Part shown: one piece after another, positions 1,308-18,532 of the stretch
Position numbering within the stretch: position 1 is the first letter of the stretch
Layout: every line of letters begins with the position of its first letter
Virus record (IMG/VR): IMGVR_UViG_643348544_000004
Length of the DNA stretch: 44,988 nucleotides
Source of the DNA: a virus
Taxonomy: Duplodnaviria > Heunggongvirae > Uroviricota > Caudoviricetes
Reading direction: 5' to 3' (one strand)
Notes under the pieces: model-generated
Databases searched by the model: none
What the model was told of the DNA's origin: nothing
What the model saw: only the letters and a program-made list of their open reading frames with translations
Program-made: the position numbers and the translations under genes

Positions 1308-3800
1308 TTAAAAATCAGCCTGACTCGGGAGCAGTTTTTGCCAGATGGCTGAAACGTATTTCGCCTGGTAACGTGCATCGTTCAGAGCGTTATGGCGTTC
1401 ACCTTCGAATGGAATAGTCGTTCTTGCGTCGAAATCCATCACCAGTCCCAGAGCAACCATCGTTCTTACATCGCGATCATTGGTGTAACGCCACGGGCAG
1501 GGGATCCCCTGCCGTTCATATGAACGGCGTAAAATCACGTTGTCGAAAGTTGCACCGTCACCCCAGACCTGAACAAAAAATTCACCGGAGTTTTCGTCGA
1601 TAAATTCCCGCAATTGTAACAGTGCATCATCTAACGGGATTTCATCGGTCATAATGGCAGATTGCGCTTCGCGTGATTGCTTAAGCCACCATTTAATGGT
1701 GTCCCGATCAATGACTCCGCCAGCAGTTTCCAGATCGATAGTCTTACTAAATTCCGGTCCCATATCTCCGGTTTGCGGATCGAAAAATATTGCACCTATT
1801 GAGATGATCGGGGCATCAGGATTTTTTCCCATGGTTTCAAGGTCGATCATTAGATGGTCACACGTCCTGCTGGTGGATGTGATAACGTGATGACCGTTCA
1901 CCGTAATTAAGGGATCTGCCGTCTCGCCAGTTTCACTATCGCTGGCGTGATCCTGAGCGCTACCAGCATTCTCCTTGTGTGGATGTTCAGCGCCTTCCAT
2001 TTCCTTCGGATCATTTTCCTGAACTTCAACCTGATTCTCTTCATCGAATGTTTCCTGGTATGTTGCGTCACCCATCACCGCGCCACAATCAGGGCAGTTG
2101 CCGCCACCGCTTTGACCGCAGGCGGTGCAGACTTTTTCCGGTTCCTGTTGCGCTACTGGCTCAGGTTGTTTCGTTTCTGGCTCGTTTTGTAACGCATTTG
2201 GGCTGTTTTGTTCCGCTTTCTGGCTGTTTTGTTCCGCTTTCTGGCCGTTCTGTTCCGTTTCTTGCTGGTTCTGATTCACTGAATCGCGGGTTTCAATCCC
2301 CTTCACCCATTTCGGATCATTCGGGTCGCTAATCCCTGCAACAAATTCACCACGTGATACAGCAAGCAACTTATTGGCGTCAGGCTGGCTGATATTGGCT
2401 GCCTGCATAATTTTGTTTACTTCGTCAGCGGTAACTTTTACCGGCTCTGGTTGTGCGATCGTGTCAGATGCACCAGTATTTTGTTGTGAACCTGAGTACG
2501 TGCCGTTTTTACGTGCGAAGTATTCCTCTTTTGTGATTTCCGTAGCTCCCAGGGCCAGTGCTTTTTCCAGACCAGAAAATTTGTTTGCGCGACCGTATTT
2601 TTCGCCGTCCTTATCGGTGAAAAGGAAGTAGAACGGTCCCTCACGCTCTACAGATGGTTCGTCTTCCACTTCGCATTCGGTTTTTTCGTTGTCCGGCATT
2701 GCCGTTTCCACTGCATCAGTTTCTGGTACTGGCGACGAGAGAGTATCAGTTGCGCTCTGATTTCTTCCTTCATCTTCAAACACGCCCTTTGTAGTCAGGT
2801 ATTCAGTAATGTATTTGTTCAGTGCCACAGGGTCTTTGTGAATGTCGATCGGACGTTCACGGACAAGGCCAAAAATAGTCTGGCGGTCGTAGCGAAGGGC
2901 ATCAGGCTGTTTGCGCATTGATGCCGAGATACGCTTCCAGTCTTCGCGGTCGTTGTCGATAACTTCATTTTTTGCCCAGCGATGGATGCTGCCGTCAATG
3001 TTTCCGGCATCCACATCACCAGGCCAGAGAGCGTAGGCCAGTTCGTCATCCAGTGTTTTCCATGTCTGCTTGTATTCGCGATGAATGGCAGCAATGACCG
3101 GGCTGATTTTTCCTGTTGAATTTTCACTGTGCTGTTGATTGGTTCTGGCGCGGGCGAGATCAACAACAGACGTGTATTTTCCGGTTTCCTTGCGTTCACC
3201 TTCGCGACGTTTTTTCCAGATGCGCATCTCTGCCTGAATTTCGGGCCATTTGGCACCAGGCTTACATTTATGCTTAACCCACCCGATGGCATGCAGCTTA
3301 AGCTCCGGATACATGGCGTTAACTTCTGGCATTTTCATCAACGCTTCAACGATATGTCCGTCGAATGTTGCCATGTCTTCCTGCAACAATTCCTGTGCGT
3401 TAATAACCATATCAACGGTGATGTTTTCACATGTGTCGAACTTAACCATGACAGCGTTCTGTACTTCAGGGGACAGCTTGTCAAAATTGACGTTCATCGG
3501 ATCGGATTCTGGTTCGACCGGAATAAAGGAAGCGGATTCCTCATCCCAGCGGTTTTCCTGCATATATTCAGCATCCCAGGAATCGAGGGCAGGGCGGGGT
3601 ATACCGGGTTTATCCTCGCAGACAAGAAATTTATAAGCGCAGTCCTGAGCAGCCGGATAATGTTCCAGGAATTGCCAGTGAAATTTTGCGCGGGCGCGAC
3701 GTTCATCACCGGCTTCAATGGCAGTGGCTACAGCGACGGCACCTTCTTCCTTTATTGCCTGTTCGTCCGGAATGGCGGCGCAAATAAAGACTTTACTCAT
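1308..3800 (-). CDS. RecE-like exodeoxyribonuclease VIII homolog with C-terminal DnaQ-like (DEDDh) 3'-5' exonuclease domain, 830 aa
   Basis: Central region recalled as near-identical to E. coli RecE (KLLAVSRGEFVAGISDPNDPKWVKGI..., CTACGQSGGGNCPDCGAVMGDATYQETFDE); C-terminus has DEDDh motifs (MIDLETMG, WGDGATFD, HNALNDARYQA) rather than the RecE nuclease fold. Confidence 0.85.
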   Translation of the reverse strand: MSKVFICAAIPDEQAIKEEGAVAVATAIEAGDERRARAKFHWQFLEHYPAAQDCAYKFLVCEDKPGIPRPALDSWDAEYMQENRWDEESASFIPVEPESDPMNVNFDKLSPEVQNAVMVKFDTCENITVDMVINAQELLQEDMATFDGHIVEALMKMPEVNAMYPELKLHAIGWVKHKCKPGAKWPEIQAEMRIWKKRREGERKETGKYTSVVDLARARTNQQHSENSTGKISPVIAAIHREYKQTWKTLDDELAYALWPGDVDAGNIDGSIHRWAKNEVIDNDREDWKRISASMRKQPDALRYDRQTIFGLVRERPIDIHKDPVALNKYITEYLTTKGVFEDEGRNQSATDTLSSPVPETDAVETAMPDNEKTECEVEDEPSVEREGPFYFLFTDKDGEKYGRANKFSGLEKALALGATEITKEEYFARKNGTYSGSQQNTGASDTIAQPEPVKVTADEVNKIMQAANISQPDANKLLAVSRGEFVAGISDPNDPKWVKGIETRDSVNQNQQETEQNGQKAEQNSQKAEQNSPNALQNEPETKQPEPVAQQEPEKVCTACGQSGGGNCPDCGAVMGDATYQETFDEENQVEVQENDPKEMEGAEHPHKENAGSAQDHASDSETGETADPLITVNGHHVITSTSRTCDHLMIDLETMGKNPDAPIISIGAIFFDPQTGDMGPEFSKTIDLETAGGVIDRDTIKWWLKQSREAQSAIMTDEIPLDDALLQLREFIDENSGEFFVQVWGDGATFDNVILRRSYERQGIPCPWRYTNDRDVRTMVALGLVMDFDARTTIPFEGERHNALNDARYQAKYVSAIWQKLLPSQADF
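2200..2262. repeat. Three tandem copies of a 21-bp unit (TGGCTGTTTTGTTCCGCTTTC, third copy degenerate) inside the recE-like gene
   Basis: Direct reading of sequence; encodes repeated QKAEQNS heptapeptides in a low-complexity Q/E-rich linker. Confidence 0.8.
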
Positions 3801-3895
3801 TTTGTTTTAACCTCATTACAGATTTCAGGGTGAACGAATCCCTGCCATTGCTGGCATTTTTAATCCGTTGGTATGGCGTTAATATGGCTGGCGGG

Positions 3896-4084
3896 TTATC
3901 CAGCCGGTATTTCGTTATTCAGGTTCAGCGATACTTTTTTTAACGGGAGGCATTCACCGGGGATTTTTTGTTCGTCCCTTACCTGAATGCAGGATGACTT
4001 ACTGTCATAAATTCCGGTAATCACATTTTGTGGCTCACCCGTTATAAGAAAAACGGTCATCACCAGTGCAAATGCTGAAGTCAC
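3896..4084 (-). CDS. Hypothetical small protein (62 aa) with hydrophobic N-terminus
   Basis: ORF directly upstream of recE-like gene on same strand; stop overlaps start region of the next ORF (ATGA-type coupling); no recognisable family. Confidence 0.3.
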   Translation of the reverse strand: MTSAFALVMTVFLITGEPQNVITGIYDSKSSCIQVRDEQKIPGECLPLKKVSLNLNNEIPAG

Positions 4085-4269
4085 TGCTGTTCTCCGATAA
4101 TACCAAGTTCAAGAAGGGCAATTCTGGAAAGTATGGAATTATCATTGAGAAGATAAGGTTCATATTTTCTCATCTTAATGGCATCTTCCGTAAACTCCCG
4201 GTTACTGAGCAGAACACCAATATCAAAACAACCTTCAGACGTATTAACGTTTGGTAATAACGTTTCCAT
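4081..4269 (-). CDS. Hypothetical small protein (62 aa, start METLLPNVN...)
   Basis: Internal Met of the 97-aa frame chosen; translationally coupled to downstream small ORF; no recognisable family. Confidence 0.3.
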   Translation of the reverse strand: METLLPNVNTSEGCFDIGVLLSNREFTEDAIKMRKYEPYLLNDNSILSRIALLELGIIGEQQ

Positions 4270-4286
4270 TATCGCGTCCTCAACAA

Positions 4287-4434
4287 TGAATTTTGTGATG
4301 CGGTGCCTGGTGCCTCCAGGTGACGTTAACCAGTTAACAATTAACGCCGGATACAGAGAATCCACCCATAACACTGTTTTTGGTTTTAACTGTTCCGCGT
4401 GCGCTCAGCCGCATTCACCACATCACAAAATTCA
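4287..4434. repeat. Pair of perfect 14-bp inverted repeats (TGAATTTTGTGATG / CATCACAAAATTCA) flanking about 120 bp of palindrome-rich DNA
   Basis: Read directly: copy 1 at 4287-4300, reverse-complement copy at 4421-4434; interior contains CCTGGTGCCTCCAGG and GTTAACCAGTTAAC palindromes; sits in a roughly 570-bp stretch with no convincing ORF. Confidence 0.6.
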
Positions 4435-4836
4435 CTTTAAAAAGGGCGGCAGAGCAGTCACGGAGTAAAACTGATACCGCCAAACGTCACCAGAAAATTG
4501 ATAACAGAGGGCGTTGCAGCGGGGTTGTCACTTAAGCGTATGGTCAACCTGACAACCCGGTGTCCTCAACGGGGAAGGAATAACCCCGCCATACTTACCG
4601 CCGCGCCATTTCGCGGGTTGCCACAACCGGAAGCGCACGGTCGACGAAAATTTAACGACAGGCTATCTATGAACCAGCTACCTCGCCGTGCGCTTTCGCT
4701 TTATGCCCTGACTTTTCAGGGACATATCCTTTCAGTAAACTGTCAGTGCCGGATGTTCACCCGTGTCCGGCGCACGCACTCCACCTGACCCGTGGAGAAC
4801 TCCTTAATTACCAACCTTAGCTTCGTTGGTTAGCTA

Positions 4837-5055
4837 TTAACGCGGGTATGTAACCATTCTGGCAATGCTTAATGCCGCTGCTTTTTCCAGCCTGGTGATA
4901 TCCTGCTCCAGAGCGGACAGATTTTCAGCCTGCTTAGTCCTGGCTTCATTGGCCCATTTCAGATCCTGCACTGCATTAATTTTCTGGCGCATCCACTCAT
5001 AAAGTTCATCATCGGTATAGTCTGGCGCGATGATGACGGGTTCTCGTTTCTGCAT
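4837..5055 (-). CDS. Hypothetical early protein, 72 aa (Qin YdfC-like by recollection)
   Basis: ORF MQKREPVIIAPDYTDDELYEWMRQKINAVQDLKW...; same strand and operon position as the small genes downstream of dicA in Qin-type prophages. Confidence 0.45.
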   Translation of the reverse strand: MQKREPVIIAPDYTDDELYEWMRQKINAVQDLKWANEARTKQAENLSALEQDITRLEKAAALSIARMVTYPR

Positions 5056-5084
5056 ACTGATTCCTCGCGGTGCTGTTTCGCTTA

Positions 5085-5213
5085 TCAGCCGTTAGATTTT
5101 GCCGAACTGGAAAGCGCCTGTTTAAATTCGTTGAAGCTGAGAGTTTCTTCGCCTTCGGCAAGACCATCGAAGTATTCTTCGTAAGCCTTTTCCATGATTG
5201 TGTCGAAATCCAT
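5085..5213 (-). CDS. Small protein, 42 aa (MDFDTIMEKAYEEYFDGLAEGEETLSFNEFKQALSSSAKSNG), YdfB-like
   Basis: Below the 60-aa track cutoff; found by manual translation of minus strand; start 1 nt after stop of upstream small gene. Confidence 0.4.
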   Translation of the reverse strand: MDFDTIMEKAYEEYFDGLAEGEETLSFNEFKQALSSSAKSNG

Positions 5214-5214
5214 A

Positions 5215-5370
5215 TCACTCACCTGAGTTTCTTTCCAGCCAGCGACGGGCACCATTTTCGGTTTTAAACGTTTTGCTTTTGGTATACGTCATCGCGGTGA
5301 ACGTGCCGTCCTGGTTGGGAAACACGCCGCATACCAGAGATTCGTTGTTGCCAAGATCGATAGTATCCAT
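5215..5370 (-). CDS. Small protein, 51 aa (MDTIDLGNNESLVCGVFPNQDGTFTAMTYTKSKTFKTENGARRWLERNSGE), YdfA-like
   Basis: Internal Met of the 69-aa frame; first gene downstream of dicA on the same strand. Confidence 0.45.
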   Translation of the reverse strand: MDTIDLGNNESLVCGVFPNQDGTFTAMTYTKSKTFKTENGARRWLERNSGE

Positions 5371-5449
5371 GCTGACCTCATTTCCCCTTAACGCCAGGGT
5401 AGCGGAACTGTTTGCTGAGAACACCGTGCGGTGTCTTGATGAGTAGAAT

Positions 5450-5463
5450 TTAGAATAACCTAA
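5450..5463. promoter_or_regulatory. Operator-like palindrome TTAG-N6-CTAA (TTAGAATAACCTAA) downstream of dicA, upstream of ydfA-like gene
   Basis: Same half-site arrangement as the sites in the dicA-dicC intergenic region; 12 of 13 identical to the 5987-6000 site when read on the opposite strand. Confidence 0.35.
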
Positions 5464-5577
5464 GAATTGTGGTCAAGCTTTTTGTGTAGAAAAACCTAAG
5501 TTTTTTGATGTAAAAAACACAAGCATTTGAAAGTTTATGCTTTTTATTACAGAGAGTGGCGAAAAAAAGGGAGGGGG

Positions 5578-5985
5578 TTATTTATTTGCGCTTCTTTTGC
5601 GAGCTTTGAGTAGTTCTTCAAAAAGTTTGTTGAAATTCTCAACTCGAGCACGCATCTCTGACAACAGAGCCTTTTGCTCTGACTCAGGCAGTGCGTCGAA
5701 CAGTTGAAGCAACTCTTTTTGATCTTCTGTCAGATTAACTGGCTGATTATCTGGGATCGGTTCGCCTGGTTGCTTATCTTCATCTCCAAAAAGAAGCCAA
5801 GTCGGCGAGCACTGAAGCGCCTGGCTCAGTGCGAATAATCTCTTCCCCGCTGGCTGTGTTTCATCTCTTTCCCATTGAGAAATTGTTACGTGAGCCACTT
5901 TGACCAGCTTACCTAATGCGGCCTGAGACAGTTTTAATTTTTTACGCCTGTATAAGAGGCGAGCACCGAAGGTTTCGTTTTTCAT
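5578..5985 (-). CDS. dicA: DicA-like HTH (XRE-family) repressor, 135 aa
   Basis: Same length as E. coli DicA and strongly similar from memory (LFALSQALQCSPTWLLFGDEDKQP..., EMRARVENFNKLFEELLKARKR); divergent from a dicC-like gene. Confidence 0.85.
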   Translation of the reverse strand: MKNETFGARLLYRRKKLKLSQAALGKLVKVAHVTISQWERDETQPAGKRLFALSQALQCSPTWLLFGDEDKQPGEPIPDNQPVNLTEDQKELLQLFDALPESEQKALLSEMRARVENFNKLFEELLKARKRSANK

Positions 5986-6061
5986 ATTAGGTAATTCTAA
6001 TTTTTCTTGACTTAGGTTTCTCTACGATCTAGTTTCCTTAGGAAAATCTAAGGAGTTCGAT
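5986..6061. promoter_or_regulatory. dicA-dicC divergent promoter/operator region with three TTAG-N6-CTAA-type palindromes
   Basis: Sites read at 5987-6000 (TTAGGTAATTCTAA), 6012-6025 (TTAGGTTTCTCTAC, imperfect) and 6036-6053 (CCTTAGGAAAATCTAAGG); candidate -35 TTGACT at 6007-6012 and -10 TAGTTT at 6030-6035 for rightward transcription. Confidence 0.5.
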
Positions 6062-6289
6062 ATGTTGAAAATTGATGCTATAGCGTTTTTTGGCAGCAAA
6101 ACAAAGCTTGCCAATGCCGCAGGAGTTAGGCTGGCAAGCGTTGCTGCATGGGGGAAACTGGTTCCTGAAGGTCGCGCGATGCGTCTACAGGAGGCATCCG
6201 GCGGGGAACTTCAGTACGACCCCAAAGTTTATGACGAATATCGTAAGGCAAAGCGGGCGGGGCGGTTGAACAATGAAAATCACCCCTGA
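6062..6289 (+). CDS. dicC: DicC-like Cro-type regulator, 75 aa
   Basis: Divergent from dicA with AAGGAG RBS; sequence (…LVPEGRAMRLQEASGGELQYDPKVYDEYRKAKRAGRLNNENH) matches remembered DicC. Confidence 0.8.
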   Translation: MLKIDAIAFFGSKTKLANAAGVRLASVAAWGKLVPEGRAMRLQEASGGELQYDPKVYDEYRKAKRAGRLNNENHP

Positions 6290-6824
6290 ACAGGTTTGTG
6301 AGGCTCTGGATGCCTGGGTATGTCGACCAGGAATGACACAGGAGCAAGCGACGATATTAATCACGGAAGCATTCTGGGCTCTGAAAGAACGCCCGAACAT
6401 CGATGTTCAACGCGTCACGTTTAATGATGGCGAGGTTGATCAACGGGCGCTGGGCGTTAACCGGGTGAAGATATTCGAACGCTGGAAAGCTATCGACACC
6501 AGGGATAAGCGGAAAAAATTCACGGCGCTGATTCCGGCAATTATGGAGGCTATCCGAATTAGTGATTTCAGGTTGTATCGTGAGATCAGTGATGGAAAAA
6601 GCATTACGTACATGATCGCCGGATTAAACAAAGAATATGGCGATGTGGTGGAGTCCGGGCTGCTTTTTGCGGATCCAGCTGTTGTGGAACGTGAGACTGA
6701 CGAGCTTATAGAAAAAGCTATTGCTTTCAAGCATGCGTATCGTCAGCAATATCAATATTACTTTGCAGATAAACAAATGTCTGCCAGGGGTTTGTATGAG
6801 TATCGATGCACTACGATGGGCTAA
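6273..6824 (+). CDS. Hypothetical early protein (YdaT-like), 183 aa
   Basis: Start overlaps dicC stop; N-terminal pattern MKI...E... resembles Rac YdaT by recollection; occupies the CII-equivalent position. Confidence 0.45.
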   Translation: MKITPEQVCEALDAWVCRPGMTQEQATILITEAFWALKERPNIDVQRVTFNDGEVDQRALGVNRVKIFERWKAIDTRDKRKKFTALIPAIMEAIRISDFRLYREISDGKSITYMIAGLNKEYGDVVESGLLFADPAVVERETDELIEKAIAFKHAYRQQYQYYFADKQMSARGLYEYRCTTMG

Positions 6825-7836
6825 AAAGGTGAAAACCGGCAGTTCATCCAGTAAGTCTGTATTGACCTGGCTTGCTGATATGTGCGGTGCCGATTTGTGT
6901 GCATACCCGTCTGTATCTGCACTGGCAGAAGTAACGGAACTAAACAAAAAGACTGTGCAGGACAGCTTACGACACCTGATGGAGATTGGGTTAATTGTTG
7001 ATACCGGTGAGAGAAAAGGCAGAACAAAGCAAATTGTGGTGTACCGACTTATCGGTGTAGAAGAAAGTGTTGCCGAGCCTGAATACACCCAAAAACGGGA
7101 GTCTTTAAAGGTGGGTAAAATTGGTGCTGTTAATAAAAACAGTACCGAAAATGGTTATGTTTCAGCACAAAACAGACCCAAAAACGGAACTCTTAGCTGC
7201 ATGGAAAATAACCAAAGACACCCAAATTTTCCATCAAAGACACCCAAAAACGGATCACGGAACCCAAAGGAACCCAAAGATCTAAACCCCACACATAACG
7301 CACGCGAGAGTGCTCCGACCAGTGAGCAGGAAGTTTTGTCGTTACAGGCAGCACCCCTTGTATTCCTGGATGGCCTGAGCGAACCCATCGGAAAATTTCC
7401 GATGACCGATAGCTGGTATCCGTCACGGGATTTTCGACGACGGGCTGCGTTGTGGGGGATGGCTTTGCCGGAGACAGAATTTACACCTGCTGAACTTGCC
7501 GCCTTCCGGGACTACTGGGCAGCGGAGGGGAAAGTGTTTACGCAGATTCAGTGGGAGCAGAAATTCGCCCGTCACGTAAATCACGTCAGGGCGCAGGTTA
7601 AACCAGTCAGCAAGGGGGTAAACCATGCAGCAGCACCAGGTGGCACCGCATCACGGGCAGTTCAGGAAATTCGGGCAGCACGTGAGCAGTGGGAACGTGA
7701 AAACGGATTTATCAGCGACGGAAACGGTCTGGAAGCTGTGGGAGCTTATGGGGGAGGTGTATTCGAACCGCTGGACACAGAAGAACGGGGCCGCACCTTC
7801 GAAGCTCTGGATTGCCCAGATTGGCGCGATGACTGA
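6796..7836 (+). CDS. Replication initiator (O-like), N-terminal winged HTH, iterons inside gene, 346 aa
   Basis: Start MSIDALRWAKK chosen within the 371-aa frame; HTH-type N-terminus; internal iteron-like repeats; followed by a P-like gene whose candidate start overlaps its stop (ATGACTGA). Confidence 0.65.
   Translation: MSIDALRWAKKVKTGSSSSKSVLTWLADMCGADLCAYPSVSALAEVTELNKKTVQDSLRHLMEIGLIVDTGERKGRTKQIVVYRLIGVEESVAEPEYTQKRESLKVGKIGAVNKNSTENGYVSAQNRPKNGTLSCMENNQRHPNFPSKTPKNGSRNPKEPKDLNPTHNARESAPTSEQEVLSLQAAPLVFLDGLSEPIGKFPMTDSWYPSRDFRRRAALWGMALPETEFTPAELAAFRDYWAAEGKVFTQIQWEQKFARHVNHVRAQVKPVSKGVNHAAAPGGTASRAVQEIRAAREQWERENGFISDGNGLEAVGAYGGGVFEPLDTEERGRTFEALDCPDWRDD
7177..7280. repeat. Iteron-like direct repeats (CCCAAAAACGGA x2, AAAGACACCCAAA x2, GAACCCAAAG x2): candidate replication origin
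   Basis: Read directly from sequence within the O-like gene, analogous to lambda ori lying inside O. Confidence 0.4.
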
Positions 7837-8290
7837 ACAGCAAATCCGGCTGGTCTGCCGTCAGTGCATGGACCGCTGCCGGGCGGGTGAAACGTGGCCC
7901 CCGGACCTGGCTGAGTTTGTTGCACTGATTTCGGAGAGTGGGGCAAATCCATTTGGTCTTACGGTGGATGCAGTGATGGAAGAGTACCGGCGCTGGCGCA
8001 ATGAATCCTGGCGATACGACGGGAGTGATAAATACCCGTGGCCACAGCCTGTGCTGTACCACATCTGCCTCGAAATGCGTACCAGAGGGATTGAGCGCCA
8101 GATGACGCAGGGTGAGTTAAAACGACTTGCGGAACGGCAACTGACGAAATGGGCAAAGCATGTTGGTAACGGGATGAGTGTTCCGCCAGTGCGACGACAA
8201 CTGGAAGGGGCGAAACACCCGCAAGGGCCAACGCCAATTGAACGGCTGAAACAGGAATACGAACGCCGGAAGGCAGCTGGTTTTATTTGA
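7625..8290 (+). CDS. Replication protein P-like (helicase loader); start uncertain (7625, 7751 or 7829)
   Basis: C-terminal two-thirds resembles lambda P from memory (PDLAEFVAL..., YPWPQPVLYHICLEM...); start at 7829 would give ATGACTGA overlap with O-like stop. Confidence 0.6.
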   Translation: MQQHQVAPHHGQFRKFGQHVSSGNVKTDLSATETVWKLWELMGEVYSNRWTQKNGAAPSKLWIAQIGAMTEQQIRLVCRQCMDRCRAGETWPPDLAEFVALISESGANPFGLTVDAVMEEYRRWRNESWRYDGSDKYPWPQPVLYHICLEMRTRGIERQMTQGELKRLAERQLTKWAKHVGNGMSVPPVRRQLEGAKHPQGPTPIERLKQEYERRKAAGFI

Positions 8291-8323
8291 ATCTGAGAAA
8301 CGATTTTGTCGGAGGAAATTTTA

Positions 8324-9094
8324 ATGGAAACCGTATTTGACGCACTGAAAGCAATGGGAAAAGCCACATCGGTAGAACTGGCCGCGCGACTTGATATCAG
8401 TCGTGAAGAGGTTCTCAACGAGCTGTGGGAACTCAAAAGAAATGGCGTCGTTGATAAAACTGGTCACACCTGGTTTCTGGCTGGCGAAGGTGAATCCCGG
8501 GTAACCGAAGAGCGGCCAGTAAAATCTGAAGCACAGGATATGCTGACCGGAGAGGTCGAACAAAAAGTTACCGCAGACATGATGATTGAGTTTATCGGTC
8601 AGGATGGTGCTAAAACGTGTGAGGAACTGGCGGGTAAGTTCGGCGTCAGTACTCGCAAGGTTGCCTCCACGCTGGCGGTGGTAACCGCAACGGGGCGGCT
8701 GGCACGCGTTAATCAGAACGGTAAATTTCGTTACTGCATGCCGGGCGATAATTTACCAGCAGAGCCGAAAGCCGCGCTGGTAACGGAAAGTGATGGTAAG
8801 GCCTTTCCTCAGCCAGCAGGTGCTGCGTTACCAGTCCGGGAAGCCGCAACACAGGAAGAAATTAAAACAGAAACTGTGGCGGACATTGTGCAGCCGTTGC
8901 CATCGTTTACCGAAACGCAAGCAGATGAGCTGATTTTTCCGTCCCTTCGCAGGGCAAACCTGGCGCTGCGCAGGGCGAAAAGTGATGTTCAGAAGTGGGA
9001 GCGAGTCTGCGCCGCGCTGCGGGAGCTGAACAAGCACCGGGATATTGTTCGACAGATTACTGATTCTTCCCGCCGTGTTGTATCGGAAAAGTGA
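8324..9094 (+). CDS. Hypothetical phage protein with N-terminal winged-helix-like region, 256 aa
   Basis: GGAGG RBS 8 nt upstream of ATG at 8324; common lambdoid-prophage early protein, function unknown. Confidence 0.5.
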
Positions 9095-9109
9095 TTGCCG
9101 GAGGCGCTT

Positions 9110-9532
9110 ATGGCAAAAGTATTTACACCAGAAGAGCGGGAAAAAATTAAAGGGCAGGTTGTTGAACTCGTACGCCAGAGTGGGCGCGAGACGTTACGAC
9201 AACTGGAAACTAAAACTGGGGAAACAAGATATCTGATGAGCGTTCTGGCCAGAGAGCTGGTTGCCAGTGGCGATGTATACAACTCTGGTTACGGGTTATT
9301 CCCGTCTGAACAGGCGCGTAAGGACTGGCAAAATGCCCGCAAAAAACTCTCAAGGGCAAAGCTGAAGAAACCATCTGTGGTTGATCCGGACCTTATCTGG
9401 CTATTACCTGACGGAGAAATACGTCGCTACGACAGGCGTCAGAACATAATCTGTCGCGAGTGCCGGAAGAGCGAAGTTATGCAGCGCATATTGTCGTTTT
9501 ATCAGGGTAATTTTCAGGAGGTAGCGCAGTGA
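9110..9532 (+). CDS. Hypothetical phage protein, 140 aa
   Basis: GGAGG RBS upstream of ATG 9110; stop overlaps next gene start. Confidence 0.45.
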   Translation: MAKVFTPEEREKIKGQVVELVRQSGRETLRQLETKTGETRYLMSVLARELVASGDVYNSGYGLFPSEQARKDWQNARKKLSRAKLKKPSVVDPDLIWLLPDGEIRRYDRRQNIICRECRKSEVMQRILSFYQGNFQEVAQ

Positions 9533-10017
9533 GTGCACCGGCAACCATTCTTGATATGTGCTGTGGCAGCCGTATGTTCTGGTTCGATAAGAATGACGAC
9601 CGGGCGATATTTAGCGATATCAGAAAAGAAGAGCACACATTGTGTGATGGACGACGCCTGATTATCAGTCCTGACCTGATAGCAGATTTTCGAGCATTAC
9701 CATTTGCAGACGCATCGTTTCCGGTTGTTGTATTCGACCCTCCGCATCTTGAGTGTGTTGGTGATAAAGCCTGGATGGGAAAGAAATATGGACGGTTGAA
9801 TAAAGATACCTGGCGTGATGATTTGCGGCAGGGATTTAAAGAAGCTTTTCGTGTGTTGTGGCCACATGGCGTTCTGATTTTTAAATGGAATGAAACGCAA
9901 ATATCTGTCCGCCAGATATTGGCACTAACCGACGCGAAACCAATCATCAGCCAGCGCACCGGTAAGAACGATAAAACACATTGGATTATTTTTGTGAAGG
10001 AGGCGACCAGTGGGTAA
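9529..10017 (+). CDS. Small putative DNA methyltransferase (SAM-binding ILDMCCGSR motif, DPPH motif), 162 aa, GTG start
   Basis: Motif I-like LDMCCG and motif IV-like FDPPH read in translation; GGAGG RBS; overlaps both neighbours. Confidence 0.5.
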   Translation: MSAPATILDMCCGSRMFWFDKNDDRAIFSDIRKEEHTLCDGRRLIISPDLIADFRALPFADASFPVVVFDPPHLECVGDKAWMGKKYGRLNKDTWRDDLRQGFKEAFRVLWPHGVLIFKWNETQISVRQILALTDAKPIISQRTGKNDKTHWIIFVKEATSG

Positions 10018-10264
10018 ATCAAAATGCCAGGTTTATGGCAACAAGATAGAACCGTGTACGACCCTGGCAAAATCCCTTGAGCATGATGCTGAATACACGA
10101 TGCGAAAAGGTCTGCTGATATACAAAATCTGGAATGAGAGTTTAACTCGCGGTCCTGATTTTGTGATGTTGCGTTCCGGTGAATTTTCTAAATTACCAGT
10201 TCGGGTTTCATTTTGTCCGTTCTGTGGTGAAAGTCTGAAAACGTGGGAGAACAGAAATGAATGA
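10010..10264 (+). CDS. Hypothetical protein with C-terminal CxxC zinc-ribbon-like motif (CPFCG), 84 aa
   Basis: GAAGGAGG RBS before GTG start; overlaps upstream and downstream genes. Confidence 0.4.
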   Translation: MGKSKCQVYGNKIEPCTTLAKSLEHDAEYTMRKGLLIYKIWNESLTRGPDFVMLRSGEFSKLPVRVSFCPFCGESLKTWENRNE

Positions 10265-10568
10265 AATTAAAGAAATACCAGTAGTACGTGATGAATATGG
10301 CTACTGGACGCATCCTGAATATGAAAAATTCTGTGACGGTCGGGAATATATTTCAACGGAAGAGTTTAACGCCTGGATGGAGGAAAATAATCTTCAATAC
10401 GTCCTCTGCTTCAGAGATGAAGGATGTGCTGACCTTGATGCGTGTGATGCTGATATTTCTGCATGGGAACCGGAACGACCAGAGGGCAATGGATGGTTTA
10501 TTGGTTCAATACATGACACCGAAGATGGCCCGGTTTGTGTATGGCTGAGAAATAAGGCCGAAGCATAA
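10257..10568 (+). CDS. Hypothetical phage protein, 103 aa
   Basis: ORF overlapping upstream stop; no recognisable family. Confidence 0.4.
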   Translation: MNEIKEIPVVRDEYGYWTHPEYEKFCDGREYISTEEFNAWMEENNLQYVLCFRDEGCADLDACDADISAWEPERPEGNGWFIGSIHDTEDGPVCVWLRNKAEA

Positions 10569-10696
10569 AGGCTATAAACCGACTAACAACTAAATACTGA
10601 AGATTTAAATCAGAAACGATTTTTATTAAATCCTTAACCGGAGGGATTCCTGCACCCTCAGAACATCAGGAGGCCGTCCGAAAGGGCGGTAGTGAA

Positions 10697-10879
10697 ATGC
10701 GAAAATTCAAAATAATTATTGAAACGGGAATAGCCGGTGGAGATTTCGAGGATGAATTCGAAGTGGATGATGATGCAACACCAGATGAAATACAGGATGA
10801 AGCTAAAGATATTTTCTTTAACTACTGCAATTACTCATACCACGAAATAAAAGACGAAGAGGAAGAACAAAATGGCTGA
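10697..10879 (+). CDS. Small highly acidic protein, 60 aa (about one third D/E)
   Basis: MRKFKIIIETGIAGGDFEDEFEVDDDATPDEIQDEAKD...KDEEEEQNG; charge composition reminiscent of DNA-mimic anti-restriction proteins (inference only). Confidence 0.35.
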   Translation: MRKFKIIIETGIAGGDFEDEFEVDDDATPDEIQDEAKDIFFNYCNYSYHEIKDEEEEQNG

Positions 10880-11048
10880 TTTTGGTTCAACTAAATACAA
10901 CGTCAGTTTTGAAGCATGGCATGAACTGTTAATGGACTATGCAGAGTTACGTGGTGGCAGTGCTGCTGATGCTGAAGCATGGCGTGATGATTATGAAGCA
11001 GGAAAAACTCCGGTCGAAGCATATTGTGATGAGTGGGGCGATGAATGA
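10872..11048 (+). CDS. Small acidic protein, 58 aa (MADFGSTKYNVSFEAWHELLMDYAELRGG...)
   Basis: Below track cutoff; manual translation; overlaps neighbours at both ends. Confidence 0.3.
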   Translation: MADFGSTKYNVSFEAWHELLMDYAELRGGSAADAEAWRDDYEAGKTPVEAYCDEWGDE

Positions 11049-11560
11049 GCGAGATTAATTATCAGGAAGGGCATGAAACGGCAGGGCAGGCAAAAACAGT
11101 GGCATGGCGATATCGCTACGTGAAAAAAGACGTTACAGACTTTCAGGGGAAGCCGTGGGCTGGTGACTGGAAATATGTACCGACAAAAGAGGATTGTAAC
11201 GACAGGCCGAACTATGAAATTCAGGCCTTATTCATCGGCCCGCCAGTCCCGGTGACATCAGAAGGACTGGTTAAAGCCGTGCGCTTTTATGAACAGGTAA
11301 AGCGTGAGAATCCGCCAGTCGAAACAGGAGCATGGAAGGATGCTGTTGACTGGGTGCTCAGAGAGGCCTGCTGCGCTGCCATTCTGGGTAAAGCCGACAA
11401 TCCACCAGCATCCGGCAATCAGGTTAGCGAATTAACAATGTGGGTTAAACGACTGGTCAGTCAACTGAAAAAAGCTCAGCCGGACTGCAAATTACCGGAG
11501 AAGGCGATGGATTACCTGAAACGAAATGGACTGATAAGCGTGGAGGATGTTTTACGATGA
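11045..11560 (+). CDS. Hypothetical phage protein, 171 aa
   Basis: ORF with ATGA overlap to upstream gene; no recognisable family. Confidence 0.45.
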   Translation: MSEINYQEGHETAGQAKTVAWRYRYVKKDVTDFQGKPWAGDWKYVPTKEDCNDRPNYEIQALFIGPPVPVTSEGLVKAVRFYEQVKRENPPVETGAWKDAVDWVLREACCAAILGKADNPPASGNQVSELTMWVKRLVSQLKKAQPDCKLPEKAMDYLKRNGLISVEDVLR

Positions 11561-11767
11561 AAATTTAGACTAAAGAGTTTGTAACGCTATGTAAGTGATT
11601 TTTTCTGGTTTAGATATTTATATGTCCGGCCAAATTGAGGTGTGTTTAAATGTTATTGCACATTGATTGTAGGGGGAATAATGAAAAACGCATTGCAGTT
11701 TTTGTTTGTTGCGTTCTGGTTGTTCGCATCATGTATGCCCATCATCTTCACAGCAAGGTATATGGAA

Positions 11768-11776
11768 AAAATTGAT
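11768..11776. repeat. IS1 target-site duplication, left copy (AAAATTGAT)
   Basis: Identical 9-mer directly abuts both IS1 ends. Confidence 0.85.
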
Positions 11777-11791
11777 GGTAATGACTCCAAC

Positions 11792-12295
11792 TTATTGATA
11801 GTGTTTTATGTTCAGATAATGCCCGATGACTTTGTCATGCAGCTCCACCGATTTTGAGAACGACAGCGACTTCCGTCCCAGCCGTGCCAGGTGCTGCCTC
11901 AGATTCAGGTTATGCCGCTCAATTCGCTGCGTATATCGCTTGCTGATTACGTGCAGCTTTCCCTTCAGGCGGGATTCATACAGCGGCCAGCCATCCGTCA
12001 TCCATATCACCACGTCAAAGGGTGACAGCAGGCTCATAAGACGCCCCAGCGTCGCCATCGTGCGTTCACCGAATACGTGCGCAACAACCGTCTTCCGGAG
12101 CCTGTCATACGCGTAAAACAGCCAGCGCTGGCGCGATTTAGCCCCGACATAGCCCCACTGTTCGTCCATTTCCGCGCAGACGATGACGTCACTGCCCGGC
12201 TGTATGCGCGAGGTTACCGACTGCGGCCTGAGTTTTTTAAGTGACGTAAAATCGTGTTGAGGCCAACGCCCATAATGCGGGCAGTTGCCCGGCAT
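11792..12295 (-). CDS. insB: IS1 InsB (transposase frame; expressed as InsAB' by -1 frameshift), 167 aa
   Basis: Canonical IS1 InsB sequence; overlaps insA 3' end. Confidence 0.9.
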
Positions 12296-12489
12296 CCAAC
12301 GCCATTCATGGCCATATCAATGATTTTCTGGTGCGTACCGGGTTGAGAAGCGGTGTAAGTGAACTGCAGTTGCCATGTTTTACGGCAGTGAGAGCAGAGA
12401 TAGCGCTGATGTCCGGCGGTGCTTTTGCCGTTACGCACCACCCCGTCAGTAGCTGAACAGGAGGGACAGCTGATAGAAACAGAAGCCAC
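12214..12489 (-). CDS. insA: IS1 InsA, 91 aa
   Basis: Sequence [43 protein letters not shown]... is canonical IS1 InsA. Confidence 0.9.
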
Positions 12490-12553: not shown

Positions 12554-12774
12554 GTTTTGATATTAATGTTTGGACATATAAATGCCCTTTTTTTAGGGGT
12601 GTTCATGGCGGTCATGTGCATTGAATACTGGCGGTAAATACAGCGAACGCCATTGGTTTAGTTGGATATTTACTGTGCCGGACAAAAACGGTTTGCGGGG
12701 AAATCTTAGTTAAGTAGAATAACTGCGGGTGCTTGAGGCTATCTGTCTCAGGCATGAACACCAAAAGGCAGATA

Positions 12775-12846
12775 GAGAAAAGCCCCAGTTAACATTACGC
12801 GTCCTGCAAGACGCTTAACATTAATCTGAGGCCATATCTATGCGAC
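12775..12846 (-). ncRNA. Predicted Sok-like antisense RNA of the hok locus
   Basis: Minus-strand promoter-like -35 TTGACC (12876-12881) and -10 TAATCT (12852-12857) with 18-nt spacer, directing transcription antisense to the hok leader; hairpin plus T-rich tract downstream; prediction only. Confidence 0.3.
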
Positions 12847-12899
12847 ACATAGAGATTAGCCTCTTACGGACCGAAAGGTCAAGGAGAAGCAGGCTATGA
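12840..12899 (+). CDS. Short mok-like leader ORF overlapping hok start (19 codons)
   Basis: ATG at 12840, stop TGA at 12897-12899 overlapping the hok ATG (ATGA); shorter than canonical mok. Confidence 0.25.
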   Translation: MRHIEISLLRTERSRRSRL

Positions 12900-14921: not shown

Positions 14922-15302
14922 ATGACCGAGCGCATAGAATTTGTTTTACCTTACCCGCCGACGGTGAACACTTACTGGCGACGCCGTGGCAGCACATATT
15001 TTATCTCGGAGGAGGGAAAGCGTTATCGCCGGGCTGTGGCGCTTATTGTTCGCCAGCAGCGGCTGAAATTAAGCCTGTCCGGAAGGCTGGCGATAAAGGT
15101 GATTGCAGAGCCACCGGATAAGCGTCGTCGCGACCTGGACAATATCCTGAAAGCACCGCTGGATGCGCTGACGCATGCGGGAGTGTTAATGGACGATGAG
15201 CAGTTTGATGAAATCAATATCGTTCGTGGTCAGCCAGTATCTGGTGGACGTATGGGGGTGAAGATTTACCCCATAATGCTTGAAGGGCAGGTCAAAAAAT
15301 GA
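14922..15302 (+). CDS. rusA: RusA Holliday-junction resolvase, 126 aa
   Basis: Pattern ...LPYPPTVNTYW...DKRRRDLDNILKAPLDALTHAGVLMDDEQF matches RusA family from memory. Confidence 0.8.
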   Translation: MTERIEFVLPYPPTVNTYWRRRGSTYFISEEGKRYRRAVALIVRQQRLKLSLSGRLAIKVIAEPPDKRRRDLDNILKAPLDALTHAGVLMDDEQFDEINIVRGQPVSGGRMGVKIYPIMLEGQVKK

Positions 15303-16120
15303 AACTGGAAGATTTACCGAAATACTACTCCCCAAAATCCCCCGGCCTGACTGATGCATCGGCCTCAACGTCAAAAGATGCGCTGAGTATCACTGATGTG
15401 ATGGCCGCGCAGGGCATGACACAGAATCGGGCTGAGATGGGGTTTTCTGCGTTCCTGGGGAAAATGGGCATCAGTATGAATGACAGGGCGCGGGCAACAG
15501 AATTACTGGCAGATTATGCACTCAGTCGGTGCGATCGTGTGGCGGCGTTGAGAAAACTCCCGGCAGAAATAAAACCGGTAGTGATGCGCATTATGGCTTC
15601 GTACGCTTTTGAGGATTATGCCCGCAGCGCAGCGAGTAAAAAGCAGTGCCCTTGTTGCTATGGGGAAAAATTTATTGAAAGCGTAGTTTTTACAAACAAG
15701 GTCCAGTATCCGGATGGTAAGCCGCCGGTATGGGCAAAGTGTACGAAAGGTGTGTATCCGTCTTACTGGGAAGAATGGAAAAAAGTCAGGGAGGTGGTAA
15801 AAGTTGCCTGTCCGGAGTGTGGCGGAAAGGGTGAGGTTTCCACCGCCTGTAAGGATTGCCGTGGGCGTGGTGTCGCCATTCATCGTGAAGAGTCGGTAAA
15901 ACGTGGTATGCCTGTTATCAGAGATTGCCAGCGTTGTGGTGGTCGTGGCTGTGAAAGGCTGCCATCAACGGAGGCATTTAATGCCATATGCAAAGTGACG
16001 AGTGCTATCACGCTTGATACGTGGAAAAAATCAGTGAAACGCTTTTACGATACGTTGGTGGTTCGGTTTGACATTGAAGAGGCATGGGCGGAGCGGCAGT
16101 TAAAGAGGGTAACGCGATAG
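15299..16120 (+). CDS. Late-gene antiterminator Q (phage-82/Quu type), 273 aa
   Basis: Cys-rich zinc-binding region (CPCCYGEK, CPECGGKGE, CKDCRGRG, CQRCGGRG); position immediately upstream of a promoter/terminator pair and the lysis genes. Confidence 0.75.
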   Translation: MKLEDLPKYYSPKSPGLTDASASTSKDALSITDVMAAQGMTQNRAEMGFSAFLGKMGISMNDRARATELLADYALSRCDRVAALRKLPAEIKPVVMRIMASYAFEDYARSAASKKQCPCCYGEKFIESVVFTNKVQYPDGKPPVWAKCTKGVYPSYWEEWKKVREVVKVACPECGGKGEVSTACKDCRGRGVAIHREESVKRGMPVIRDCQRCGGRGCERLPSTEAFNAICKVTSAITLDTWKKSVKRFYDTLVVRFDIEEAWAERQLKRVTR

Positions 16121-16694: not shown

Positions 16695-17744
16695 ATGCTT
16701 AATACTGTAAAAATATCCAGTTGTGAGTTAATCAACGCCGACTGCCTGGAATTTATCCGGTCGTTACCCGAAAATTCTGTTGACCTGATAGTCACGGACC
16801 CGCCGTACTTTAAAGTGAAGCCTGAGGGCTGGGATAACCAGTGGAAGGGCGACGATGATTACCTGAAGTGGCTGGACCAGTGTCTGGCGCAGTTCTGGCG
16901 GGTGCTGAAACCTGCCGGAAGTCTTTACCTGTTCTGTGGTCATCGCCTGGCATCTGATATCGAAATCATGATGCGTGAACGCTTCAGTGTGCTGAACCAT
17001 ATTATCTGGGCGAAGCCGTCCGGACGCTGGAACGGATGCAACAAGGAAAGCCTGCGGGCGTATTTCCCCGCCACAGAGCGCATTCTGTTCGCGGAACATT
17101 ATCAGGGGCCGTATCGTCCGAAAGATGCCGGGTATGCGGCGAAGGGCAGTGCACTGAAACAGCATGTGATAGCCCCGCTGATTTCTTACTTTCGTGATGC
17201 GCGCGCGGCCCTGGGGATAACGGCAAAACAGATTGCAGATGCCACAGGAAAGAAAAACATGGTGTCGCACTGGTTCAGTGCCAGTCAGTGGCAGCTACCG
17301 AACGAAAGCGATTATCTGAAATTACAGTCGCTGTTTGCCCGGGTGGCAGAAGAGAAACATCAGCGCGGTGAACTGGAAAAGCCCCACCACCAGCTGGTGG
17401 ATACGTATACGTCACTGAACCGGCAGTATGTGGAGCTGCAGAGTGAATATAAGCATCTGCGGCGGTATTTTGGTGTGACGGCGCAGGTGCCGTACACGGA
17501 TGTGTGGACACATAAACCGGTGCAGTTCTATCCCGGGAAACATCCGTGCGAAAAACCGGCAGAAATGCTGCAGCAGATAATCAGCGCAAGCAGTCGTCCG
17601 GGTGACCTGGTTGCAGATTTTTTTATGGGCTCAGGTTCAACGGTAAAAGCTGCACTGGCGCTCGGGCGTCGTGCGATTGGCGTTGAACTGGAGACCGGAC
17701 GTTTTGAGCAGACAGTCAGGGAAGTTCAGGATTTAATCGTTTGA
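16695..17744 (+). CDS. Orphan DNA methyltransferase (N6-adenine/N4-cytosine class, DPPY motif), 349 aa
   Basis: VTDPPYF catalytic motif and FxGxG-type SAM motif (DFFMGSGST) read in translation; no adjacent restriction endonuclease gene. Confidence 0.8.
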   Translation: MLNTVKISSCELINADCLEFIRSLPENSVDLIVTDPPYFKVKPEGWDNQWKGDDDYLKWLDQCLAQFWRVLKPAGSLYLFCGHRLASDIEIMMRERFSVLNHIIWAKPSGRWNGCNKESLRAYFPATERILFAEHYQGPYRPKDAGYAAKGSALKQHVIAPLISYFRDARAALGITAKQIADATGKKNMVSHWFSASQWQLPNESDYLKLQSLFARVAEEKHQRGELEKPHHQLVDTYTSLNRQYVELQSEYKHLRRYFGVTAQVPYTDVWTHKPVQFYPGKHPCEKPAEMLQQIISASSRPGDLVADFFMGSGSTVKAALALGRRAIGVELETGRFEQTVREVQDLIV

Positions 17745-17793: not shown

Positions 17794-17869
17794 GGCCCTT
17801 TAGCTCAGTGGTGAGAGCGAGCGACTCATAATCGCCAGGTCGCTGGTTCAAATCCAGCAAGGGCCACCA
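17794..17869 (+). tRNA. ileZ: tRNA with CAT anticodon, most likely tRNA-Ile2 (lysidine; ileX/ileZ-like)
   Basis: Cloverleaf folded by hand: acceptor GGCCCTT/AAGGGCC, anticodon loop CTCATAA, T-loop TTCAAAT, 3' CCA; close to remembered E. coli ileX. Confidence 0.75.
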
Positions 17870-17876
17870 TCACATA

Positions 17877-17953
17877 CCGCCATTAGCTCATCAGGAAAGA
17901 GCGCCAGCCTTCGAAGCTGGCTGCGCGGGGTTCAAGTCCCCGATGGCGGTCCA
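17877..17953 (+). tRNA. argN: tRNA-Arg (anticodon TCG)
   Basis: Acceptor CCGCCAT/ATGGCGG, anticodon loop CTTCGAA, T-arm GGGGTTCAAGTCCCC, 3' CCA; folded by hand. Confidence 0.65.
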
Positions 17954-17966
17954 TTATCTGCATCAT

Positions 17967-18043
17967 GCGTTGTTAGCTCAGCCGGACAGAGCAATTGCCT
18001 TCTAAGCAATCGGTCACTGGTTCGAATCCAGTACAACGCGCCA
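17967..18043 (+). tRNA. argO: tRNA-Arg (anticodon TCT)
   Basis: Acceptor GCGTTGT/ACAACGC, anticodon loop CTTCTAA, T-loop TTCGAAT, 3' CCA; folded by hand. Confidence 0.75.
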
Positions 18044-18532
18044 CACTTATTTTCCCTGGCTCGCTTTTGCGGGCCTTTTTTTTAAATGTCTCACAATTCA
18101 GACGGTTGACAGTTGTCTGTTTTGCGGGGAGTTTGTTAAAAGAAACTGGCATGGTGAATCCCCCTGTGCGGAGGGGCAATCAGCGAGTAGGTATATGGGA
18201 TAATCGCGGATTCAGGTGCTGGTACTGAATTCACCGGGAGGCACCCGGCACCATGCAATGGCACATAGCGCCACTCTCCAGCCCCTCTCCGGAGGGGCTT
18301 TCTTATGGACAAAAAAAGCCCGCGCTGGGAGACGCGGGCGGCAAGGAATAAACAATAAAACGTGAAGTAATATTTCAGCTGGCGAATAATACCCCATAGT
18401 AATCACTCTGCGCAACTGCGCGGTCTTTTTCGAATTGCGGGCTGTAGTCTCCCTTCTGCCATTGTCCTGTAACTTCCGGACTTCAGCCTGCTCCTTATCT
18501 GACTCACAACATTATCCCGCCCGGGAGGATTC

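Follow-up and report, generated by a model that had tools for sequence, protein, structure and literature searches.

The five consecutive genes g1–g5 at positions 8,324 to 10,568 of a viral DNA of 44,988 nucleotides (nt; IMG/VR record IMGVR_UViG_643348544_000004, the whole stretch being called the window below) are separate mosaic cassettes, and one of them, the methyltransferase gene g3, is an independently mobile single-gene insert. Only g4 and g5, usually located behind g2, travel together. The five products are a DUF1627 protein (g1), a DUF977 or Ren-like protein (g2), the methyltransferase (g3), a four-cysteine protein (g4) and an acidic protein (g5). The g3 protein is predicted to be a complete minimal class I amino-methyltransferase that depends on S-adenosylmethionine (SAM). 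Our favored explanation as a whole, i.e., a mosaic accessory segment of an early operon that carries g3 as a DNA methylase of low specificity, appears reasonably probable. A preliminary description of this DNA, made from the sequence alone, had instead regarded g1–g5 as one co-translated anti-restriction or epigenetic-marking unit with cooperating products; the analysis of gene neighborhoods makes this very improbable.

The argument for a unit starts from tight packing. The genes g1 and g2 abut, separated by a gap of 15 nt, and the subsequent junctions overlap by 4 nt (g2/g3, GTGA), 8 nt (g3/g4) and 8 nt (g4/g5); each of the five start codons has its own GGAGG-type Shine-Dalgarno sequence 6–9 nt upstream. 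The five open reading frames (ORFs) and their 4–8 nt overlaps, as well as the motifs LDMCCGSR (residues 8–15) and DPPH (residues 70–73) of g3 and CPFCG (residues 69–73) of g4, were all found where the preliminary description had placed them. Since there are Pfam matches, PHROGs profiles match all five proteins (1e-37 to 1e-136), and RefSeq contains five coding sequences with identical boundaries in a homologous prophage of Escherichia coli Z1323CEC0003, g1–g5 are genuine genes and no chance ORFs. Exact protein sequences occur on public contigs as well (76 for g2, 145 for g3 and at least 1000 for g5).

The five genes are not co-conserved. A megablast search of 5426 complete E. coli genomes detected parts of the 2.5-kb segment in 4619 of them, but coverage reached 80% or more in just 7; the identical g1–g5 order is present in a few genomes. 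In a group of genomes of Shiga toxin-producing E. coli (STEC), the segment was matched as two pieces, with approximately 490 nt absent. For example, the gene order in STEC005 is DUF1627, DUF977, g4, g5 and DUF7167, g3 is missing, and the DUF977 stop codon overlaps the g4 start codon by 4 nt. Because this g2–g4 junction is clean, g3 represents a precise single-gene insertion or deletion between g2 and g4. The sequence GGAGG-N5-6-GTG is common to the g2/g3 junction (window positions 9505–9535), the g3/g4 junction (9985–10015) and the g2/g4 junction of STEC005 (locus L083, 2790–2815), and may have served as a short boundary homology for gain and loss of lambdoid cassettes.

Neighbors were scored by tblastn in the best 80 IMG/VR loci for each of g3, g2 and g4, with at least 1.5 kb required on both sides. 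Sampling of best matches favors close relatives; it should be noted that this bias is expected to inflate linkage, not to hide it. For g3 as the anchor (65 loci), g2 was adjacent in 10 and g4 in 6 cases. For g2 (63 loci), the adjacent gene was g1 in 26, g4 in 11 and g3 in 3 cases; thus, g2 occurs without g4 in approximately 80% and without g3 in 95% of these loci. Conversely, g4 (68 loci) was adjacent to g5 in 57 cases (84%) and to g2 in 46, with g2 present in 62, and to g3 in 10. Among methyltransferases with at least 81% identity to g3, the genes on the upstream side belong to 22 neighbor families and those on the downstream side to 20, and overlaps of −3, −7 and −13 nt recur with unrelated neighbors of close g3 relatives. 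In 187 distinct contexts of the g3 family, collected with four query clades, we counted 715 neighbor clusters, the commonest of which was found in 46 loci. The preliminary description had named neighborhood conservation as a check on the proposed unit, and co-conservation fails except for g4–g5 and for g2 in front of g4. The persistence of these two associations and the few genomes with all five genes in order are, together with the packing, what can be said for a five-gene unit. They are outweighed by the rarity of the block and by the behavior of g3, a clean presence/absence cassette with some 20 alternative neighbor families on each side. Furthermore, none of the five proteins is a known component of anti-phage defense according to PADLOC: a scan of g1–g5 returned only methyltransferase profiles for g3 and weak matches of the winged helix-turn-helix (wHTH) type for g1.

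The start/stop overlaps themselves are generic for lambdoid early operons, so that the step from overlap to unit in the preliminary description does not hold. The chain of overlaps runs on past g5 (8 nt at 10872/10879 and 4 nt at 11045/11048), and a promoter and terminator scan of positions 5400–11800 revealed no site above the shuffled background. In lambda, the overlap is 4 nt for P/ren, ninB/C, C/D, E/F, G/H and I/Q, and 11–34 nt for other pairs, although the functions encoded have no relation to each other (a recombination mediator, a PAPS-reductase-like protein, the Rap nuclease and a phosphatase). Because the chain continues, shows no promoter or terminator site above background and is seen in lambda as well, the overlaps are a property of the operon and do not define a five-gene unit; the five-gene boundary of the segment is arbitrary. 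One polycistronic early transcript would carry g1–g5 after infection or induction, and the overlaps would reflect the compact packing typical of an early operon without any shared function. More generally, start/stop overlap in phage early operons is no evidence for a functional module.

The g3 protein belongs to a large family of small methyltransferases. It matches phrog_954, annotated as “DNA methyltransferase” (5.2e-86, residues 5–160), and two REBASE-style PADLOC profiles, MTase_II PDLC03288 (2.3e-71, residues 6–159 on profile positions 3–163 of 169) and oMTase PDLC03730 (6e-49, full length, 153 positions). The family comprises 7819 clusters when grouped at 90% identity and, at E ≤ 1e-3, 1990 when grouped at 50% identity. 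Because the family profiles are 153–169 positions long, a length of about 160 amino acids (aa) is normal, and the 162-aa protein is not unusually small, as had been thought. Some family members are longer, but their extensions are mutually unrelated: this is true of all N-terminal extensions of at least 35 aa, which were found in 41 homologs, and the C-terminal extensions of the 248-aa forms resemble fusions with downstream genes. Since the extensions are unrelated singletons, the core of about 155 aa is likely to be the functional unit. We also considered whether a conserved domain for recognition or zinc binding, which g4 might supply in trans, is hidden in the extensions, and rejected this possibility: the extensions are unrelated and g4 is rarely located beside the methyltransferase. 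In one member of 239 aa (P0215), the C-terminal half of the methyltransferase domain is partly repeated, i.e., there is an internal duplication.

An AlphaFold2 model of g3 built from 98 diverse homologs had a mean predicted local distance difference test (pLDDT) of 95.3 and a predicted template modeling score (pTM) of 0.89, whereas an earlier input of 65 close homologs (75–97% identity) gave a pLDDT of 52. The model has the seven strands of a Rossmann methyltransferase and few helices. The conserved motifs, evaluated in the same 98 homologs, are the following: (i) motif I, ILDMCCGSR (residues 7–15), after strand 1, with G13 conserved in at least 90%; (ii) motif II, D30 at the end of strand 2, which is invariant; (iii) motif III, D53-F54, at least 90% conserved; and (iv) motif IV, DPPH (residues 70–73), immediately after the strand 64–69, with P71 and P72 invariant and D70 and H73 at least 90% conserved. 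The amino-methyltransferase assignment of the preliminary description is thus upheld by a complete SAM-binding Rossmann fold in the structure prediction. Because the motifs run in the order I-II-III-IV without an insert, there is no room for a target-recognition domain; in the model, the catalytic core takes up all 162 aa and such a domain is absent. Pfam searches with g3 and its homologs did not reveal any DNA-binding or other nucleic-acid-binding domain. A PDB search with the family profile returned generic class I methyltransferases only (best E 2.9e-5). Foldseek yielded 206 PDB matches at E ≤ 0.001, and among the matches listed class I methyltransferases predominated with a Foldseek probability of 1.0; the sole strong match in BFVD was a member of the same family. 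The best-ranking structural neighbors include PH0226, a phospholipid N-methyltransferase, Trm11 (tRNA m2G10), an archaeal ribosomal RNA (rRNA) m4(2)C synthase and Bud23, followed at lower ranks by M.TaqI, TrmM, HemK and DNA N4C/N6A methylases. The model settles the predicted fold and catalytic class, whereas the structure matches do not discriminate the substrate.

The g3 gene is present in 872 of the 5426 complete E. coli genomes (16%), and tblastn detected the family in 254 phage records. By host, the records include Streptococcus (68), Vibrio (38), Acinetobacter (19), Porphyromonas (15), Listeria (12) and Gordonia (11); further hosts are Lactobacillus, Enterococcus (phiEf11, phiFL) and Staphylococcus. 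The family therefore spans temperate phages from four bacterial phyla (Proteobacteria, Firmicutes, Actinobacteria and Bacteroidetes). As a rule, these proteins are 45–65% identical to g3, with values of up to 62% in Gordonia phages and 65% in a Corynebacterium phage; this is unusually high for a phage accessory protein compared across phyla. In all inspected phages the gene is found in the early region amid replication and recombination genes, and its immediate neighbors vary.

Some of these neighbors are canonical DNA methylases. They adjoin the g3 family in phages ZF40 (gp21) and Gordonia RavenCo17 (gp61), and a C5 methylase and an N6_N4 methylase are located near g3 homologs in two further loci (L249 and L250, respectively). 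In a jackhmmer search, 24 of the 187 g3-family contexts had a C5 or MT-A70 methylase at a distance of up to 2 kb, directly adjacent in 9 cases, and weak Pfam N6_N4_Mtase matches were obtained for 28 of 98 g3 homologs. The proximity to canonical DNA methylases and the weak N6_N4_Mtase matches favor a role in DNA modification, the neighbor enrichment (24/187) being a suggestive pointer in this direction. We lean, mildly, toward g3 methylating phage DNA with low specificity in an anti-restriction role. The enzyme would produce N6-methyladenine or N4-methylcytosine in phage DNA with little or only short sequence specificity during lytic growth, and this methylation would blunt host restriction, with M.EcoGII as the analog. 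Non-specific prophage DNA adenine methyltransferases that are silent in lysogens provide a precedent: broad protection from restriction has been proposed for M.EcoGII and Hia5, and M.EcoGII is not expressed in the lysogen (PMC5778455, PMC3299994). The anti-restriction or epigenetic role proposed in the preliminary description is thus reasonable for g3 alone and fails for a five-gene module.

As a separate observation, we note “methylase islands” in unrelated phages, in which a g3 homolog abuts a large DNA methylase (C5, MT-A70 or unclassified). They are found at positions 3465–5618 of locus L088 (ZF40) and 1418–2995 of L086 (RavenCo17), and in loci L039, L063 and L067.

Several results weigh against this assignment of g3 to DNA. 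The methylase-neighbor rate of 13% is modest and, being a raw rate, suggestive at most. There is no above-threshold Pfam or NCBIfam family for g3 (Pfam Methyltransf_11 and Methyltransf_25 are sub-threshold), and a PDB search with the single g3 sequence gave no match. The best structural neighbors are moderate, with TMq values (a template modeling score) of 0.55–0.61, and most of them are RNA or small-molecule methyltransferases. In the literature searched, we found no biochemically characterized member of the g3 family, only the unrelated PamA (NPPY, GATC), M.EcoGII, Hia5 and the MT-A70 enzyme of phage PA8. The product name assigned by the Prokaryotic Genome Annotation Pipeline (PGAP) to WP_001275729.1 of E. 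coli AF39, which is 100% identical over the 477 nt compared, is “TRM11 family methyltransferase”. The prophage already has a canonical 349-aa N6_N4 DNA methylase, and a second one is not obviously needed. Finally, the closest amino-methyltransferase folds, Trm11 and the archaeal rRNA m4(2)C synthase, act on RNA, and an identity of 45–65% over four phyla also fits a universal rRNA or tRNA target.

These points give substance to the best-surviving alternative, namely that g3 is an RNA methyltransferase whose substrate is host rRNA or tRNA. It would form, for example, m2G or m6A and thereby retune translation in the course of phage development or in the lysogenic state; in this prophage, g2 could provide specificity. 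We consider this rather unlikely. Besides the fold neighbors, the PGAP name and the separate DNA methylase, it draws on the lack of a target-recognition domain in a family that is unusually conserved over phyla, as would be the case for a universal RNA, and on the Shiga toxin (Stx)-converting phage PA8. In PA8, M.EcoPA8orf6770P, an MT-A70 “DNA adenine methylase”, prefers 16S rRNA when bound to its upstream winged-helix partner PNB-2, and the 143-aa wHTH gene overlaps the MT-A70 gene by 4 nt (PMC10810198). However, g3 and g2 have no detectable similarity to the PA8 methylase and PNB-2, the g2–g3 adjacency is low as described above, and no other partner is conserved. The THUMP domain of Trm11 is missing from g3, and the similarity to Trm11 (TM 0.59) is no better than that to generic methyltransferases. 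In addition, the g3 family recurs beside bona fide DNA methylases. An RNA target of g3 as such is therefore unlikely, and so is a family-wide modification of conserved host rRNA or tRNA that reprograms translation during phage development. If true, the latter would establish, after the PA8 enzyme, a second class of such phage enzymes acting on RNA, with a far wider distribution.

It is decidedly improbable that g3 methylates a small molecule or the amino group of a protein, or that it is catalytically inert here. Enzymes with (D/N)PP(Y/F/H) motifs include protein glutamine methyltransferases, with HemK among the Foldseek matches; the phospholipid N-methyltransferase and protein N-terminal methyltransferases are among the top matches, and g3 has no detectable nucleic-acid-binding domain. 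Conversely, these matches are uniformly weak and none discriminates between substrates, and the family is confined to phage early regions amid replication and recombination genes and DNA methylases. An inert protein is at odds with the strong conservation of all SAM-binding and catalytic motifs. A target other than DNA or RNA is thus highly doubtful, and the assignment of g3 to phage DNA remains the one that we prefer.

The companions of g3 are described next. The g1 protein matches Pfam PF07789 (DUF1627, 9e-99) and phrog_630 (8.5e-136). It has an N-terminal wHTH and another one where the DUF1627 domain begins, with sub-threshold matches to HTH_11, TrmB and HTH_20, and its residues 73–118 weakly resemble the N-terminus of g2 (E = 0.005). 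The gene directly follows P, and RefSeq names the product, with the same boundaries, “DUF1627 domain-containing protein”. The g2 protein matches Pfam PF06163 (DUF977) over its full length (2.6e-29) and phrog_142, “Ren-like exclusion protein” (2.5e-46, residues 1–139). In its C-terminal part it has a motif in common with lambda Ren, N-[IL]-[IV]-x-[RK]-E-C-R-x-S-x-x-M-x-R-[IV]-L-x-x-Y (E = 5e-6), and the gene occupies the lambda ren position, after P with g1 alone in between. By profile and position, g2 is therefore classed as a lambda Ren-like protein, and g1 and g2 both represent the winged-helix type in the slot of ren. In lambda, Ren allows the phage to escape exclusion by Rex.

The g4 protein matches phrog_4030 (5.7e-37) and no Pfam family; its 62 homolog clusters are confined to enterobacterial prophages. 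Four cysteines (C6, C16, C69 and C72) are conserved, each of them in 90% or more of the homologs. There is a single CxxC (C69-x2-C72), and the other pair is C6-x9-C16. The cysteines are possibly compatible with a Cys4 zinc site and do not form a canonical two-knuckle zinc ribbon. The zinc-ribbon assignment of the preliminary description is thus supported to the extent that four conserved cysteines fit a possible zinc site, one pair of which has the CxxC spacing. For g5 there is a match to phrog_1372 (8.5e-56) and no informative match otherwise. In NCBIfam, four of the five proteins had no match, and g1 had only sub-threshold matches to HTH regulators.

By its gene content, the window is a complete lambdoid prophage of the E. 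coli type (Table 1), and g1–g5 are the ren/nin-equivalent accessory stretch of its rightward early (pR-type) operon, between P and Q. An identical layout, with integrase, exonuclease, repressor, O, P, DUF968, RusA, Q, tRNAs, lysis and structural genes, is annotated in E. coli Z1323CEC0003. As listed, the ORFs of the O-like and P-like genes share 212 nt; P probably starts further downstream than its listed ORF, because the STEC005 homolog is annotated at 462 nt only. Several side observations concern the flanks. In two related prophages (L001 and L084), a dicB gene is annotated in the region equivalent to that of DicF. The IS1-like insertion breaks the early operon right after the ead/Ea22-like gene. 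The 349-aa methylase is located directly 3′ of Q and 5′ of three tRNA genes, which is the arrangement of Stx-converting phages, although stx itself is lacking; the enzyme may be a candidate M.EcoGI/GII-like member of the beta class.

Table 1. Features of the prophage in order along the window; empty cells denote missing entries.
Feature	Position	Strand	Size, evidence and remarks
Integrase	1–1020	−	
Exonuclease	1308–3800	−	
DicF antisense small RNA (sRNA)	4444–4495	−	Rfam, 76.7 bits; leftward early region
HTH_3/CI-type repressor	5578–5985	−	
YdaT-like gene	between repressor and O-like gene		
O-like initiator with DnaT domain	6721–7836		
Lambda P-like replication protein	7625–8290	+	Pfam PF06992 Phage_lambda_P, 1e-15; upstream border of the accessory region
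g1, DUF1627 protein	8324–9094	+	256 aa, ATG start
g2, DUF977/Ren-like protein	9110–9532	+	140 aa, ATG start
g3, predicted class I SAM-dependent amino-methyltransferase	9529–10017	+	162 aa, GTG start
g4, four-cysteine protein	10010–10264	+	84 aa, GTG start; narrow prophage family
g5, acidic protein	10257–10568	+	103 aa, ATG start; constant partner of g4
DUF7167 gene	10697–10879	+	Pfam PF23768, 1.2e-14
58-aa gene	10872–11048	+	ORF list, PHROGs, RefSeq of homologous prophage
ead/Ea22-like gene	11045–11560	+	171 aa; PHROGs, RefSeq of homologous prophage
IS1-like insertion	11792–12489	−	InsA/InsB-type ORFs of 91 and 167 aa
hok/sok locus	12727–12898		position is that of Rfam sok, 107 bits; after IS1
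DUF968 gene	before RusA		
RusA	between DUF968 and Q		
Antiterminator Q	15299–16120		
Canonical N6_N4 DNA methyltransferase	16695–17744	+	349 aa; Pfam N6_N4_Mtase, 2.4e-44
Three phage tRNAs (Met/Ile-type CAT, Arg-TCG, Arg-TCT)	17794–18043	+	
STnc100 sRNA match	18120–18310	+	139 bits
NanS-p-like SASA esterase	18533–20395		
Lysis and lambda-like structural genes	after the esterase		

Altogether, the segment is a routine mosaic accessory stretch, and public databases already contain all five genes with unchanged boundaries. A single question merits laboratory work, namely which substrate g3, a widespread and strongly conserved enzyme of about 155 aa, really has. As an orphan enzyme the family is very common, being present in 16% of complete E. 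coli genomes and in over 250 sequenced phages from several phyla, and its label “DNA methyltransferase” is putative. Whether it turns out to be a broad-specificity DNA methylase directed against restriction or an enzyme that modifies RNA, knowledge of its substrate would provide an annotation for thousands of prophage genes.

Compared to known systems, the segment resembles the lambda ren/nin region in its slot between P and RusA/Q, in its tight packing and in mosaic single-gene exchange. The gene content, in contrast, is wholly different from that of ninB–ninI except for the Ren-like g2, and the accessory stretch of the window has a methyltransferase cassette whereas lambda is without one.

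Like M.EcoGII and Hia5, g3 would be a prophage-encoded orphan amino-methyltransferase. Hia5 is 281 aa long, Hia5 and M.EcoGII carry DPPY, and M.EcoGII is a beta-class enzyme (PMC5778455, PMC3299994). In contrast, g3 has motif I before motif IV, DPPH and 162 aa, and is not a member of those families; only some of its relatives match Pfam N6_N4_Mtase, and weakly so. Because of its 281 aa, Hia5 is no size precedent for g3.

The likeness to PA8 is one of layout: in both cases the methylase start overlaps by 4 nt with the stop of an upstream gene encoding about 140 aa, a wHTH protein in PA8. The PA8 enzyme belongs to MT-A70 (1.3e-22) and has DPPW, whereas g3 has no MT-A70 match in Pfam, and the PA8 methylase is encoded in the leftward early region whereas g3 is in the rightward one. 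More than 83% of STEC with full-length M.EcoPA8orf6770P also have the adjoining PNB-2 gene (PMC10810198), unlike the g2–g3 pairing, which is not conserved. BLASTP did not align g2 with PNB-2, and for g3 and the PA8 enzyme it gave no significant alignment. The possibility that g1, g2 and g3 are homologs of PNB-1, PNB-2 and the MT-A70 methylase of PA8 was rejected since they have no similarity; the layout alone is analogous. It should be noted that PA8 (L082, KP682374) encodes, at positions 1634–2020 of the − strand, a 128-aa protein with a TrmB-type wHTH and the C-terminal part of DUF1627 (4.4e-7). This gene is located two genes downstream of the MT-A70 methylase, so that, in a second phage context unrelated to the first, a DUF1627-related protein is again encoded close to a small methylase.

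With Trm11, which is among its best structural matches, g3 shares an amino-methyltransferase Rossmann core with a DPP-aromatic/His motif. Unlike Trm11, it has no THUMP domain, as its core starts at residue 6, and the catalytic domain alone aligns (TMq 0.59, identity 18%). Pfam gave no THUMP or UPF0020 match for g3, and there is no sequence-profile match to Trm11 (E ~0.3).

The closest comparison is with PHROG 954 proteins of other phages, for example ORF50 of Listeria A118, PHIEF11_0050 of Enterococcus phiEf11 and gp20 of Pectobacterium ZF40. These proteins are 45–75% identical to g3, have about 155–160 aa and occupy the same place in the early region; the word “DNA” in the names of the PHROG 954 and PADLOC profiles is an annotation. 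There is no material difference between these proteins and g3, which is an ordinary member of PHROG 954.

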